64,000 nucleotides of DNA, from NCBI GenBank assembly GCA_963169855.1, contig CAUJCN010000001.1, positions 175,645 through 239,644 on the forward strand, written 5' to 3'. This DNA comes from Patescibacteria group bacterium (lineage in GTDB: Bacteria; Patescibacteriota; Dojkabacteria; J137). Of this stretch, positions 5,619 to 47,993 are shown piece after piece. The position numbers and the translations under genes were made by a program. Under the pieces are notes generated by a model that was not told the origin of the DNA, did no database searches, and worked only from the letters and a program-made list of their open reading frames with translations. The first letter of the stretch is position 1. Each line of letters starts with the position of its first letter.

Positions 5619-6623
5619 ATGAAAAAAGTTCTACTTATCTCAATTCCGCTGTTCCTGCTTTGCACATGTGTTTTAGTTATTGGAGGATTCGTGTTCGCAT
5701 TCAATTCTAATACAAATATTCCAGTAGTTTCCAATTTGGTAGAGCGATTAGAAAACGTGTTTGTAAATGAAGAGACTTTCAAAACTCAACTTGTTAAAGA
5801 GATCGAAAATATAGTAAATTCTGATTTTGAAAATGTAGCACCAGCATCAAACGAATTTAAAAGTGTAGCAGCAAATTATGTTTTGAAACTAGATGTTGAA
5901 TCTGAAGAAGGGGATTTTGGATTGGACTCATCTGGCGACATTATGGGAGATTCTAACGGAGATAAAGTTTTCGTTCGAGCTGATCTCGATCTAGATTTCT
6001 CTGGAATCAAGGTTGGGGGAGAAGTGTTCCTAATGAATTTTATAAATAACATGAAGTCTGAAACATTTATTAAATTAGAAGAAATTCCTTCTTTCTTATC
6101 AATGAACATTGAAGGATTAGAAGATGCAGAAGGTGAATGGGTTTTCTTTTCAGGAGATGTTGAACGAACAATTGAATCTACACCATTTGCAGAATTAGAT
6201 ACTGAAAAGAAAGCAGAGCTGCTTCAGTTAATTAATACAGATGAATTTAAGTCTTTAATAAGCCGAGGAAACGATAGAGTTTCTCCTACTACTAATATCC
6301 GATCCAAGTGTATTATTGTTGAAGCAAACGAGCTTAAGATGACTCAGCTTTTAAACAAATACGAAGAGATTGCTGGCAGCGATATTGAACATGATTTATT
6401 ACCTACACCTTTTAGATTTACAAGCGAAATGTGTTTTGGAAGAAAAGATGGAGCACTTTCATACTTAAATTTTGAAATATTTTCACCACAAGGAAATGGA
6501 AGCTTTACTTTAGGAGATATTCGATACTCAAACGAGCCTGTGAGTTTAGAAAAGCCTTCAGATTATATTAGTATCGAAGATCTAAATCTTTCCTTTCCAT
6601 TCTTGGAAGGAGCCCAATTCTAG
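5619..6623 (+). CDS. hypothetical secreted/membrane-anchored acidic protein
   Basis: 334 aa, N-terminal TM/signal anchor. Confidence 0.5.
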   Translation: MKKVLLISIPLFLLCTCVLVIGGFVFAFNSNTNIPVVSNLVERLENVFVNEETFKTQLVKEIENIVNSDFENVAPASNEFKSVAANYVLKLDVESEEGDFGLDSSGDIMGDSNGDKVFVRADLDLDFSGIKVGGEVFLMNFINNMKSETFIKLEEIPSFLSMNIEGLEDAEGEWVFFSGDVERTIESTPFAELDTEKKAELLQLINTDEFKSLISRGNDRVSPTTNIRSKCIIVEANELKMTQLLNKYEEIAGSDIEHDLLPTPFRFTSEMCFGRKDGALSYLNFEIFSPQGNGSFTLGDIRYSNEPVSLEKPSDYISIEDLNLSFPFLEGAQF

Positions 6624-6627
6624 CATC

Positions 6628-6658
6628 ATGACGCCCATTTTGGGCGTCATTTCTATAT
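6628..6658 (+). terminator. rho-independent terminator
   Basis: perfect hairpin ATGACGCCCA-tttt-GGGCGTCAT followed by TTCTATATATT. Confidence 0.6.
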
Positions 6659-6875
6659 ATTCGTGATATAATATATATGTATAAATCATCAATATTTTGT
6701 GCTTTATACAGATCTTTAACAAGGAAGTAACTTACTACGAATTGGACCATTGGTTGTGGGCTTTAGGCGCTTCTGTTCCGTACTTGATACGGAATCTCAT
6801 GAGCATCTAAAGCTCACACCAGTACCAATTTCGGAGTACTGGCAAATCGGAGCACAACAAGGAGAAAGTTCTACC

Positions 6876-7358
6876 ATGAAGAAGCTCATCGTCATTTCGC
6901 TGCTCATCGTCGTTTCGCTGCTCGCCGTTTTCAACGCATTCGCCCAGGAACAAACCGTCGTCATCCAGAATGTCGTCGAGTGCCCCGTCACCACCATAGG
7001 CTGGTGGGGATTAACAGGAGAACTCATCAACGACGCCCCAACGAGGGACGTAATAGTCCATTGGGACGACACCAACCAACGCTCCGCGAAGGAACTCGGC
7101 GTCGACCCAGAGCAAGGGTGGATCGTCTGGTGCACGGAGAGCGATATGCTCAGCCGCGTTGCCACAGTCGAGGGCGAGCCGAACCGAATCACTATCGATG
7201 GTGACGAATATTGCCAAGTGGCGGGCTTCGTTACTAACCTCCCGGATCGACGAGTTGTTGGCGTTACGGCGGCCGCGGCGTATGCATTCACGGAATGTCT
7301 CGGGGAGACGATCGTCGAAAGCTCATACGTAAGGACTTTCGGGATCGTCTTCGACTAG
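6876..7358 (+). CDS. small secreted 4-Cys protein encoded in a GC-rich island
   Basis: RBS GGAGAAAG 7 nt before ATG; signal peptide MKKLIVISLLIVVSLLAVFNAFA; about 50-60% GC with high GC3, versus about 33% in flanks; ORF track lists 6750..7358 from a TTG. Confidence 0.5.
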   Translation: MKKLIVISLLIVVSLLAVFNAFAQEQTVVIQNVVECPVTTIGWWGLTGELINDAPTRDVIVHWDDTNQRSAKELGVDPEQGWIVWCTESDMLSRVATVEGEPNRITIDGDEYCQVAGFVTNLPDRRVVGVTAAAAYAFTECLGETIVESSYVRTFGIVFD

Positions 7359-21104: not shown

Positions 21105-21199
21105 AAAAATGCGTTAACTAAAGGAATATTACCATGATCTAAAACATCTGAATACCCTACAGATAAACGCTATAGTGAGCGCAAGAATAAATGATGCAT

Positions 21200-21263
21200 G
21201 TTGAAGCACTCGAAATGTTCAACAAAAGAATGAATGATGTCATGGTGAGGCACTCGAACCATC
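21200..21263. repeat. two tandem hairpins of the ATGGT-TCGANNNNCCTC-ACCAT family (left flank of GIY-YIG gene)
   Basis: GTTGAA-GCACTCGAAAT-GTTCAAC and GATGTCATGGTGAGGCACTCGAACCATC. Confidence 0.7.
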
Positions 21264-21569
21264 ATCATTCTTTCTCTCTCCTAGACTATAACGTTGTGCT
21301 AACTTACTAATAAGATCGTAATCGTTTTTAATTAAAGCTTCTTTCTTAGCTCTAGACCACCTCTTAATTTGTTTTTCAAAAGCAATCGCATAATTTATAT
21401 CATTGAATTCAAAAGTGGCACAAACAATAATCGGTCTTCTTTTGTAAGTGTAACAACGATTATTCAATCCATTAGAATGCTCAGAAATTCTTCTATCTAA
21501 ATTATTAGTTACTCCTATATAAAAAGTATCGTCAATACACCTAAGAATATACACATAAAAAGACTTCAT
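21240..21569 (-). CDS. GIY-YIG nuclease family protein (COG2827/YhbQ-like)
   Basis: FYVYILRCIDDTFYIGVTNNLDRRISEH signature. Confidence 0.65.
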   Translation of the reverse strand: MKSFYVYILRCIDDTFYIGVTNNLDRRISEHSNGLNNRCYTYKRRPIIVCATFEFNDINYAIAFEKQIKRWSRAKKEALIKNDYDLISKLAQRYSLGERKNDDGSSASP

Positions 21570-21632
21570 ATTTGAAGAATACTACTAACCTCTGAGAAGT
21601 TCTTTGTCATGAAATACAAATTCCTTCTTTGT

Positions 21633-21657
21633 ACGGTTCGAGAGCCTCACCGTGACA
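21633..21657. repeat. hairpin repeat of same family, inverted relative to 21236-21263 (right flank of GIY-YIG gene)
   Basis: ACGGTTCGAGAGCCTCACCGTGACA; reverse complement matches left copy at 21/23 positions. Confidence 0.7.
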
Positions 21658-21705
21658 AAGTTATAAGCACTCAAATCGGAACTAACTTTGATATAATGCA
21701 TATGT

Positions 21706-33246: not shown

Positions 33247-33272
33247 CGTCACATCTGCAAATGCAGGTGTCT
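33247..33272. repeat. hairpin inverted-repeat arm, left flank of second GIY-YIG gene
   Basis: CGTCACATCTGCAAATGCAGGTGTCT, internally palindromic. Confidence 0.65.
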
Positions 33273-33338
33273 CCTAAAAGAAGACGATTTTGTATCATAG
33301 AACAATGCTACTTATGCAACGACATAGTAAACTGCGTT

Positions 33339-33629
33339 ATGAGAAGTGGATACGTTTACATAATCAGCAACAGAATTTGTACAGTACTGTACATAGGAGT
33401 CACTAACAATCTAGTGCGACGTATCCAAGAACACAGAGATAATAAAACCGTAACCTCATTTTCATATAGATACAACATTAACAGACTTTTATACTTTGAA
33501 TATTATGAACGAATCAGTGATGCTATCGTTCGGGAGAAACAATTGAAAAAATGGAAACGTTCTTGGAAGTTAAAGTTAATAATAGAACTGAATCCTGCAT
33601 TCGAAGATTTGTTTAAGAATTTGCTTTAA
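33339..33629 (+). CDS. GIY-YIG nuclease family protein (COG2827/YhbQ-like)
   Basis: YVYIISNRICTVLYIGVTNNLVRRIQEH; start taken at MRSGYVY because ORF-track ATG 33261 lies inside the flanking hairpin. Confidence 0.6.
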   Translation: MRSGYVYIISNRICTVLYIGVTNNLVRRIQEHRDNKTVTSFSYRYNINRLLYFEYYERISDAIVREKQLKKWKRSWKLKLIIELNPAFEDLFKNLL

Positions 33630-33635
33630 CCCAAA

Positions 33636-33661
33636 AGACACCTGCATCCGCAGGTGTGACG
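33636..33661. repeat. hairpin inverted-repeat arm, right flank of second GIY-YIG gene
   Basis: AGACACCTGCATCCGCAGGTGTGACG; reverse complement matches left arm at 23/26 positions. Confidence 0.65.
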
Positions 33662-33711: not shown

Positions 33712-35067
33712 TTACACTTCGAAGTTTTTTCCTCTAGCACCTTTTGTTAACTCAACTGGAAGATACCTTTCGAAACCTGGATCTTGTTTGTAAAGTGTTA
33801 GTAGTTTCTGCGCTGATGCAGGATCTCCAGTTCTTAGATACTTTACTTTTAGAGAGAAAAAGTAAGTATTCATCGCTTTCTTAATTTTTGGCAAATCGAT
33901 TTCCTTTTTTGACTTTCCAAGAACGTGGATTCTTTTTTCTAGCATTAGTAAATGCCAGTCTAGTTCTTCATCTGTATATTTTTCTAAATCATCTCCAATA
34001 TAGCTAGATAAGTCATCTCCAAAAACCAAAGTCAGCATTTCTATATCTGATGTTGTCAATTTAGAAATCAGTTTAACCATTTCTGATCCAAAGTATTTAT
34101 TCTTGAATGTTCTAGAATTCACTATAGCTGATTTTATTAACTCCGCTACTAATTCTTTTTCTTCAGCTGTTAAGTGTAGAGAGAATTCTGCATATGCACC
34201 AATAAAAACATCCCAATTTCCAGAAACTTCCATAACTACTCTTAGGAAGCTGTCGAATTTTTCTGTAATTCTTGAACGAATAAGTGGTTTGCTAAGATAT
34301 TCATTTATGAAACCTTTAAATAAATTTTGAATATACTCAGGTTCTACATCTTCAAGAGTTTTGCCTCGAAGAAATCCTTCTGCAAATTCTCGATCTAGAT
34401 ATGCTCCTGTTTCGATCAATAGATCTGCAATTTCTCGTTTCATGTAAGGTATTTTAATACCTCCCCTTTCTAAAATCTTAATTGCATAGTAACGGTGATC
34501 CTCAGGACTCAAATTGGGAATAATATACTCAATCAAGAAAGCCTGATAATATTGAGCGGCAGAATATTGCAAGTTGCCACTATATGCTTCTCTGTATTTA
34601 TCAACTCCTATCTTCAAGATGATATTTTTGATCCCCTCTAGAATATGTGGATCTGGAATGAAACCCTTTTTGCCCGCATCACTAAATTTTGGTTTTATAG
34701 AGATTTCTAAGTTTTCTTCGTCAGGAACAACTACTTCTGTATCGATATGTTCAGGATTCTCAGGACTATTTCTTAGCAGATCTTCAAAAGATGTAATATG
34801 TGGAACAAGAACTTTATTTCCTTTCAGAATTTCGTTCATTTGATCTGGATTTATGTGTGGTGCTGGTACTCCGCCAGAACTTCGGAGTTGTGATTCAGCA
34901 TCATCTATAAGTGGATCTTCCATATACTTATTATAGCAGGCAATCGCCCATATCACAATACTGGTAGTAATTATAGGAGTTTCAAATCTCTGCGAATAGA
35001 AATTTCTGATAACCAGCGAATAATTCCTCAAAGAGTTTCCAAGTATCCTCATCGGGTCTTTTTGCAT
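33712..35067 (-). CDS. hypothetical protein (true start possibly at internal Met, nt 34923)
   Basis: 451-aa ORF; the first 48 codons overlap the upstream gene. Confidence 0.4.
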   Translation of the reverse strand: MQKDPMRILGNSLRNYSLVIRNFYSQRFETPIITTSIVIWAIACYNKYMEDPLIDDAESQLRSSGGVPAPHINPDQMNEILKGNKVLVPHITSFEDLLRNSPENPEHIDTEVVVPDEENLEISIKPKFSDAGKKGFIPDPHILEGIKNIILKIGVDKYREAYSGNLQYSAAQYYQAFLIEYIIPNLSPEDHRYYAIKILERGGIKIPYMKREIADLLIETGAYLDREFAEGFLRGKTLEDVEPEYIQNLFKGFINEYLSKPLIRSRITEKFDSFLRVVMEVSGNWDVFIGAYAEFSLHLTAEEKELVAELIKSAIVNSRTFKNKYFGSEMVKLISKLTTSDIEMLTLVFGDDLSSYIGDDLEKYTDEELDWHLLMLEKRIHVLGKSKKEIDLPKIKKAMNTYFFSLKVKYLRTGDPASAQKLLTLYKQDPGFERYLPVELTKGARGKNFEV

Positions 35068-47804: not shown

Positions 47805-47850
47805 ACTATTAATATATCATATTTTGAGATACCGATTCCGATACAACCAT

Positions 47851-47911
47851 AGATCCCGTACCACCGACAGATCCCGCACCACCGACAGATCCCGCACTTG
47901 ATGCGGGATCT
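47851..47911. repeat. 18-bp tandem repeat ending in perfect hairpin
   Basis: AGATCCCGTACCACCGAC / AGATCCCGCACCACCGAC / AGATCCCGCA-cttga-TGCGGGATCT. Confidence 0.65.
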
Positions 47912-47936
47912 AATTAAAGTTTTACATATATCGCAA

Positions 47937-47962
47937 CATGGTTCGACAGGCTCACCATGACA
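47937..47962. repeat. hairpin-family copy upstream of alaS
   Basis: CATGGTTCGACAGGCTCACCATGACA. Confidence 0.65.
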
Positions 47963-47993
47963 CGATATAATCCTGTATATTAATTTACACATC

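Follow-up and report, generated by a model that had tools for sequence, protein, structure and literature searches.

What is a small GIY-YIG gene doing between two inverted hairpins that resemble each other closely? The question is raised by positions 33247-33661 of a 64-kb stretch of DNA from a Dojkabacteria (Patescibacteria) genome, referred to here, at its full length, as the window (G+C content 35%). An earlier reading, made from the letters alone (the sequence-only reading), had reported two 26-mers at 33247-33272 and 33636-33661 that are mutual reverse complements at 23 of 26 positions and that each form a hairpin with an 8-bp stem, and these observations were confirmed. As set out below, the locus is very probably an SRM-ssn-SRM cassette, in which the gene for an Ssn-type GIY-YIG nuclease is bracketed by its cognate hairpins.

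The Ssn system was described by Chenal et al. (Nat Commun 2025; PMC11893778), who linked the Neisseria NTS repeat CGTCATTCCCGCGMAVGCGGGAATCYRG and related motifs (Ssn-related motifs, SRMs) to ssnA, a 94-aa GIY-YIG gene, and found at least one SRM beside 71% of SsnA homologues and SRMs on both sides of 42%. SsnA binds the hairpin solely as single-stranded DNA (ssDNA), and its cut falls a few nucleotides to the 5' side of the motif; cleavage requires the three nucleotides (GTC) 5' of the palindrome, and binding requires the C 3' of it (PMC11893778). The N. meningitidis enzyme leaves dsDNA and the complementary strand uncut, neither binds nor cuts RNA, and lowers transformation by NTS-bearing DNA (PMC11893778). 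Four homologues, from N. meningitidis, N. elongata, N. wadsworthii and Wolbachia, have been characterised, and the three besides SsnA cut their own motifs (PMC11893778). The same authors likened NTS-ssnA-NTS to an insertion sequence (IS), and proposed a toolbox of ssDNA-cutting enzymes (PMC11893778). Our literature search found no further paper on the Ssn/SRM system.

The hairpin pair and the gene between them

The locus comprises the following features:

33247-33272, plus strand: upstream SRM, in sense orientation; C-GTC-ACATCTGC-AAAT-GCAGGTGT-C-T
33339-33629, plus strand: ssn-like gene (ssn#2), 96 aa, single-domain GIY-YIG; MRSGYVYIISN...LYIGVTNNLVRRIQEH...REKQLKKWKRSWK...
33636-33661, minus strand: downstream SRM, inverted; on the minus strand C-GTC-ACACCTGC-GGAT-GCAGGTGT-C-T

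In the left hairpin, GTC occupies 33248-33250, the 8-bp palindrome with its 4-nt loop 33251-33270, and the C 33271, and the stem contains one T.G mismatch. In the right hairpin, read on the minus strand, GTC lies at 33660-33658, the palindrome at 33657-33638 and the C at 33637, and the stem is perfect (8 bp, 4-nt loop). Both copies conform to GTC-ACAYCTGC-NNNN-GCAGGTGT-C, thus keeping GTC directly 5' and C directly 3' of the palindrome as in the oriented motif of the Ssn system, and they bracket the gene 5' and 3' in inverted orientation, as in the Ssn layout. The orientation follows from the asymmetric flanks (C-GTC...C-T, on the plus strand at the left and on the minus strand at the right), and the left arm matches the reverse complement of the right arm at 23/26 positions, compared with 9/26 in a direct-repeat alignment. 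Folding energies calculated for ssDNA are -4.5 (left) and -8.9 kcal/mol (right). The corresponding z-scores relative to shuffled sequences are -2.5 and -3.3, and they span -2.5 to -3.9 in dinucleotide-shuffled controls. The core CACCTGCNNNNGCAGGTG, with up to two mismatches allowed, occurs exactly twice in the 64 kb, against 0.03 occurrences expected. A chance origin of the pair was rejected on the basis of this core count and of the shuffle and control-window comparisons.

The sequence-only reading had placed the start codon of the gene inside the left hairpin. An ATG at 33261, in the hairpin loop, does begin the longest open reading frame, but this is an artefact of the ORF track: gene callers place the start at 33339 on independent contigs, for a protein of 96 aa, and 32 homologues align from the Met at 33339. 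With this start, the left hairpin ends 68 nt upstream of the gene, without overlap. The left SRM begins 91 nt 5' of the start codon (homologues: median -57, range -156 to -32), the inner edge of the right SRM lies at +8 nt from the stop codon (homologue median +9), and the cassette measures 413 nt from SRM to SRM. Its neighbours are a 288-aa hypothetical gene on the plus strand and a convergent 451-aa hypothetical gene on the minus strand (33712-35067).

The encoded protein matches Pfam GIY-YIG (PF01541) at E=3.4e-14 over residues 4-78 of 96, and the Pfam search returned GIY-YIG-type models only (PF01541, PF20815, PF10544) and no HUH/Y1 transposase. Residues Y7, Y18, R28, H32 and E66 are invariant in a 33-sequence alignment; judged from their matching spacing rather than from a direct alignment, Y7, Y18 and E66 probably correspond to the catalytic Y6, Y17 and E64 of SsnA. 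The AlphaFold model consists of one compact domain (pLDDT 90.3), its best fold matches being the GIY-YIG proteins 1zg2, Slx1 and UvrC-N. A sequence search of the PDB with ssn#2 alone gave no match at E<=0.01; UPF0213, Slx1 and UvrC were reached only with the family profile and by fold comparison. At 96 aa, the protein has the size of a single-domain Ssn protein (about 94-100 aa, without an extra DNA-binding domain). Its 2173 homologues, the best at 55-62% identity, are spread across phyla that include Bacteroidota, Proteobacteria, Thermotogota and Nitrospirota.

A GIY-YIG homing endonuclease of the I-TevI type was also considered. Such enzymes share with the cassette protein the catalytic domain and the occurrence as a small free-standing intergenic gene, but the cassette lacks a DNA-binding extension, an intron or intein context and a conserved target gene. 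The NCBIfam search returned no informative family, with grpIintron_endo (TIGR01453) at 16 bits against a 56-bit cut-off. The homing endonuclease identity was rejected on the basis of the 96-aa single domain between unrelated genes and of this sub-threshold score.

Recurrence of the cassette across phyla

The flanks of 80 homologous loci from species-representative genomes were read, covering Bacteroidota, Proteobacteria, Planctomycetota, Patescibacteria, Fibrobacter, Chloroflexota and others. A strict detector was used, in which GTC must be followed directly by the palindrome, and windows more than 1.2 kb away in the same loci served as controls. Oriented GTC-palindromes were present on both sides in 42/80 cassettes (52%) and on at least one side in 61/80 (76%), in agreement with the published 42% and 71%, whereas the motif was present in 1.7% of control windows. 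In the great majority of loci, a GTCAT-stem-loop-stem-ATC unit stands some 30-100 nt ahead of the coding region, which is followed just past the stop codon by the reverse complement of the unit, with stems that vary by locus (TTCCTGC, TTCCCGC, CCTGAA, GCTGAA, GCCGGG and others). The best flanking inverted repeat exceeded every shuffled control in 70% of 77 cassettes.

The geometry of the window hairpins (8-bp stem, 4-nt loop, GTC-A 5' and C 3') is modal for the 103 SRMs collected from the 80 homologous cassettes. Among these 103 motifs, the stem has 8 bp in 87, the loop 4 or 5 nt in 96, and a C follows the palindrome in 96; 88 begin with GTC-AT, and 8 with GTC-AC. The exact Neisseria NTS consensus is found at two loci (L021 and L058). 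The published SRM string, HGTCWYN(0-2)YYVSBRHN(0-5)WNVSBRGN(0-2)RNCYNB, is a search heuristic that matches 24/80 loci and misses the commonest, TTCCTGC type (GTCATTCCTGCGAAGGCAGGAATC); it has no match in the 64-kb window, at either hairpin or elsewhere. Homologues whose flanks carry the exact NTS consensus or match the string are 46-63% identical to ssn#2.

The sequence-only reading had proposed a comparison of GIY-YIG paralogues with their flanking repeat types, and the two similarities do correlate: among 60 cassettes, the Mantel correlation between protein and hairpin similarity is r=0.325, a value reached by none of 2000 permutations. Ancestry and base composition contribute to this correlation, which is supportive rather than decisive.

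Several individual loci show further arrangements. In Flavivirga sp. (L030, 1430-2900), three near-identical SRM-ssn-SRM cassettes form a direct tandem array (period about 505 nt) in which every unit has both hairpins. An alphaproteobacterial homologue (L064, 1501-3060) has an ORF about 1.3 kb longer than its ssn-homologous part, with a hairpin (...GGCCGGCCATGAC) only after it, and the extra sequence may be an insertion. Tandem arrays of 2-5 copies with a period of 18-25 nt, detected by TRF and made up of GTCAT, the 5' half-stem and a spacer of about 10 nt, adjoin full hairpins in a series of unrelated genomes (L010, L015, L018, L028, L058, L068, L100, L119, L133 and L135). These half-site arrays may have arisen by slippage or by repeated cleavage and repair, or they may be functional half-sites. 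The word 'tandem' is absent from the main text of Chenal et al. 2025 (PMC11893778).

Solo copies of the CACCTGC hairpin subtype

A scan for solo copies of the CACCTGC...GCAGGTG hairpin, also proposed by the sequence-only reading, gave different outcomes at two scales. In the 64-kb window, the flanking pair is the only occurrence, with no solo copies, and oriented GTC-hairpins show no general excess. In the JGI metagenome collection, an exact scan with GTCACAYCTGCNNNNGCAGGTGTC matched 45 stretches, which yield the subtype consensus GTCACACCTGCGnAGGCAGGTGTCyAG. No ssn gene is present in the sequence fetched for 40 of the 45, the other five adjoin an ssn homologue, and many copies lie beside other SRM types. 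The CACCTGC subtype is thus genuine and mostly solo. The window copies depart from the consensus in their loops (AAAT and GGAT, against GnAG) and in their 3' flanks (CTCC and CTTT, against CyAG); given these differences and the T.G mismatch of the left stem, they could be decaying.

Terminator and RNA-level readings

If no further copies were found anywhere and paralogue and flank type did not correlate, the sequence-only reading was prepared to regard the hairpins as coincidental terminators or attenuators. The hairpins would then serve the neighbouring genes in the ordinary way and stand beside the GIY-YIG gene by coincidence. Further copies do exist, in the 45 metagenome stretches, so that the exact motif recurs in unrelated metagenomes, and this reading appears extremely unlikely. 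In its favour, CTTTTGG follows the right hairpin on the minus strand, 55 nt separate this hairpin from the end of the convergent gene 33712-35067, and it passes a terminator scan on that strand (tail CTTTTGGGTT) as the only terminator-like match in the region; it may double as a terminator. The left hairpin, however, lacks a T tract and passes the scan on neither strand, and the asymmetric CGTC...CT flanks are kept in inverted orientation. The GTC-palindrome-C layout also recurs around homologues in many phyla, compared with 1.7% of control windows, and stem and protein sequences vary together. Given the missing T tract of the left hairpin and the conservation of the oriented flanks, the terminator reading in its pure form was rejected.

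An RNA-level role, in which the hairpins would act in the 5' and 3' UTRs to stabilise the ssn mRNA or regulate it, perhaps through pairing of its ends, is likewise very unlikely. Both motifs (at -91 and +8) are probably transcribed together with the gene, and in RNA the T.G pair of the left stem would become a U.G wobble. Against this, N. meningitidis SsnA neither binds nor cuts RNA (PMC11893778), and outside the window the subtype occurs mostly as solo copies distant from any ssn gene. The stem mismatches, 9 G.T versus 10 A.C, show no strand bias and are uninformative. No Rfam family matches the region either: at gathering thresholds, the Rfam search of the window returned three tRNAs only, with no match at either GIY-YIG cassette. 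The preferred reading of the locus remains that of an SRM-ssn-SRM cassette.

A second cassette with a diverged nuclease

The sequence-only reading had described a cassette at 21200-21661 with the same organisation and a different repeat, and a GIY-YIG gene with the same layout is indeed present at 21239-21656:

21239-21263, plus strand: downstream SRM of ssn#1, inverted relative to the gene; GTC-ATGGT-GAGGCACTCGA-ACCAT-C; overlaps the 3' end of the ORF
21240-21569, minus strand: ssn#1, 109-aa GIY-YIG protein of a separate, UPF0213-like subfamily
21633-21656, minus strand: upstream SRM of ssn#1; GTC-ACGGT-GAGGCTCTCGA-ACCGT

The ssn#1 and ssn#2 proteins are 45% identical and belong to separate subfamilies, with profile cross-scores of about 70 bits compared with about 150 bits within a subfamily. 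The ssn#1 protein matches the UPF0213 structure 1zg2 at E=2e-13, and is equally close to UPF0213/YhbQ-type proteins (1zg2, 1ywl) and to the ssn#2 family. UPF0213/YhbQ proteins resemble the cassette proteins in fold and size and provide the best structural and sequence matches in the PDB, but on the ssn#2-family profile UPF0213 proteins score low (26-31 bits, against 127-159 bits for members). Hairpin flanks have, to our knowledge, not been described for YhbQ-type genes. Relatives of ssn#1 in four other genomes have flanks of the same class (GTC-A-stem-GAGC...TCGA-stem), and loci of the ssn#1 subfamily (L134, L135, L137-L139) carry GTC-hairpins of their own class with the loop GAGC...TCGA. Judged from sequence relationships, ssn#1 may fall outside the published cd10448 family, which suggests that the pairing with hairpins perhaps reaches beyond the cd10448 clade through the ssn#1 subfamily.

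From the two cassettes, the sequence-only reading had argued that hairpin pairs and GIY-YIG genes are associated in general, and against a single transposon present in two copies. The 45% identity, the separate subfamilies and the differing repeats bear this out, as do the Mantel correlation and the relatives of the two proteins in other phyla, each set being flanked by the corresponding class of repeat. The association is thus supported, but it is not new, having been published together with biochemistry (PMC11893778).

The best hits of UvrC place the window in Candidatus Dojkabacteria (Patescibacteria/CPR). The genomic position of the ssn#1 cassette can be compared with that in related Dojkabacteria contigs (L140, 9876-10000; L141; L142), whose UvrC is 79% identical. 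In these contigs the AI-2E-transporter gene and uvrC are adjacent, separated by a 125-nt spacer without a GIY-YIG gene or hairpin. The same syntenic spacer in the window (21105-21705) is 601 nt long and holds the ssn#1 cassette, with junctions too diverged to map.

Other repeats were observed in the window. At 47845-47965, an intergenic cluster of Ssn-type repeats consists of 2.6 tandem copies of the 18-nt AGATCCCGYACCACCGAC, which run into a perfect 10-bp hairpin, AGATCCCGCA-CTTGA-TGCGGGATCT (47887-47911; -11.8 kcal/mol, z -6.9), with the canonical CTTGA loop and a 3' C, and with CAG in place of the 5' GTC. About 30 nt beyond this hairpin, the minus strand carries a solo motif of the ssn#1 type, GTC-ATGGT-GAGCCTGTCGA-ACCAT (47961-47938). 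A hairpin of the same third class as that at 47887-47911, TTCCGTA-CTTGA-TACGGAA-TCTC, also without the 5' GTC, is located at 6767-6795, just upstream of an unusually G+C-rich ORF for a signal-peptide protein (about 6877-7358) that may have been acquired horizontally. A perfect 10-bp palindrome at 6628-6650, ATGACGCCCA-TTT-TGGGCGTCAT, directly follows the stop codon of ORF 5619-6623; it is terminator-like, has GTCAT within its stem, and is probably unrelated to the Ssn motifs.

Relation to known systems

The 33247-33661 locus shares with the Ssn/SRM system a single-domain GIY-YIG protein of about 95 aa, inverted hairpins that bracket its gene, the sequence GTC, 8-bp palindrome, 4-nt loop and C, and homologues that occur in many phyla and have hairpin variants of their own. 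It differs from the Neisseria system in its stem (ACAYCTGC rather than ATTCCCGC), in its GTC-AC rather than GTC-AT, and in a motif that lies outside the published string. Neisseria contains hundreds of dispersed copies, whereas none is dispersed in the 64-kb window. The host belongs to the Patescibacteria (Dojkabacteria), and 12 kb from the locus there is a further, more remote paralogue whose hairpins are of another class.

The REP/RAYT and IS200/IS605 systems are comparable in having a small nuclease gene flanked by palindromes that are recognised as ssDNA hairpins, in the absence of target-site duplications, and in repeats that are dispersed as solo copies in some genomes. They differ in that the cassette protein is GIY-YIG and not HUH/Y1, and Ssn is not known to transpose. 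In IS200/IS605 elements, both ends are on a single strand and do not form inverted repeats.

Possible mobility

The resemblance to insertion sequences raises the possibility that the cassette is a present or recent autonomous IS-like element, with the hairpins as terminal inverted repeats and the GIY-YIG protein as transposase or excisase. Such an element would be an addition to the Ssn cassette explanation and does not exclude it; we consider it doubtful. The analogy was raised by Chenal et al. themselves (PMC11893778). In its favour, most cassettes are compact and uniform units of 345-472 nt from SRM to SRM, and the family is distributed patchily across phyla at 55-62% identity. The three tandem cassettes of L030 point the same way, as does the lack of the ssn#1 cassette in the syntenic AI-2E-transporter/uvrC spacer of related contigs, although this could equally reflect a deletion, and the junctions are too diverged to read. 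On the other hand, no target-site duplications were detected around 43 two-sided cassettes, in which cognate and shuffled partners were indistinguishable, and neither cassette has an identical second copy in the window. The cuts predicted for this system fall on opposite strands, unlike those of IS200/IS605. We also know of no strand-transfer activity for GIY-YIG domains of this type, which counts against an IS-like element.

Also in keeping with mobility, the Logan contig L083 breaks off precisely where the left SRM ends. This contig (SRR24928191_1568289) comes from an independent assembly of the same strain, and its end corresponds to window position 33271, the C after the left hairpin; it could mark an assembly-graph branch, that is, population heterogeneity at the cassette boundary, or be a coincidence. 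Exact look-ups of the gene and of its upstream neighbour revealed no empty site for the 33247-33661 cassette and gave only contigs of the same strain, which carry the cassette or break at it; the related genomes found via UvrC stop short of the locus.

A broader proposal would treat SRM-ssn-SRM as a class of mobile element driven by a GIY-YIG ssDNA nuclease, which would be autonomous and would excise or copy itself through ssDNA intermediates without target-site duplication. The half-site arrays would be its footprints, the two nuclease/hairpin pairs of the window would be orthogonal and represent two independent invasions, and the ssn#1 clade would extend the principle beyond cd10448. This proposal is speculative, and we regard it as improbable.

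Proposed function

Under the preferred reading of 33247-33661 as an SRM-ssn-SRM cassette, ssDNA-specific cleavage by ssn#2 may be expected from the published biochemistry. By analogy with the four characterised homologues, the protein would bind the hairpin solely in single-stranded DNA, reading the stem sequence together with the C directly 3' of it, and catalysis would need the GTC directly 5' of the stem. The motif strand would be cut a few nucleotides 5' of the motif. The predicted substrates of the protein, in single-stranded form, are the flanking pair and whatever further copies the genome or incoming DNA may contain. Because the copies are inverted, the cuts at the cassette itself would fall just outside it and on opposite strands, on the plus strand shortly before 33247 and on the minus strand shortly beyond 33661. 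The likeliest role is action on motif-bearing ssDNA (incoming DNA, or replication and repair intermediates), or that of a remnant or active selfish IS-like unit.

Implications

The 33247-33661 locus fits the system published in 2025, and the feature is therefore real but already explained. What is new is the host lineage, an SRM subtype missed by the published string, and the presence of two diverged nuclease/hairpin pairs in one genome. The Ssn system thereby extends to the reduced genomes of Patescibacteria (Dojkabacteria), and the locus otherwise mainly confirms the 2025 discovery. One genome is able to hold two diverged nuclease/hairpin pairs, and a structural definition of the motif (GTC, 8-bp palindrome, 4-5-nt loop and C) recovers more than the published string. 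The CACCTGC-type and GAGGC.CTCGA-type enzyme/site pairs are candidates for the ssDNA-cutting toolbox.
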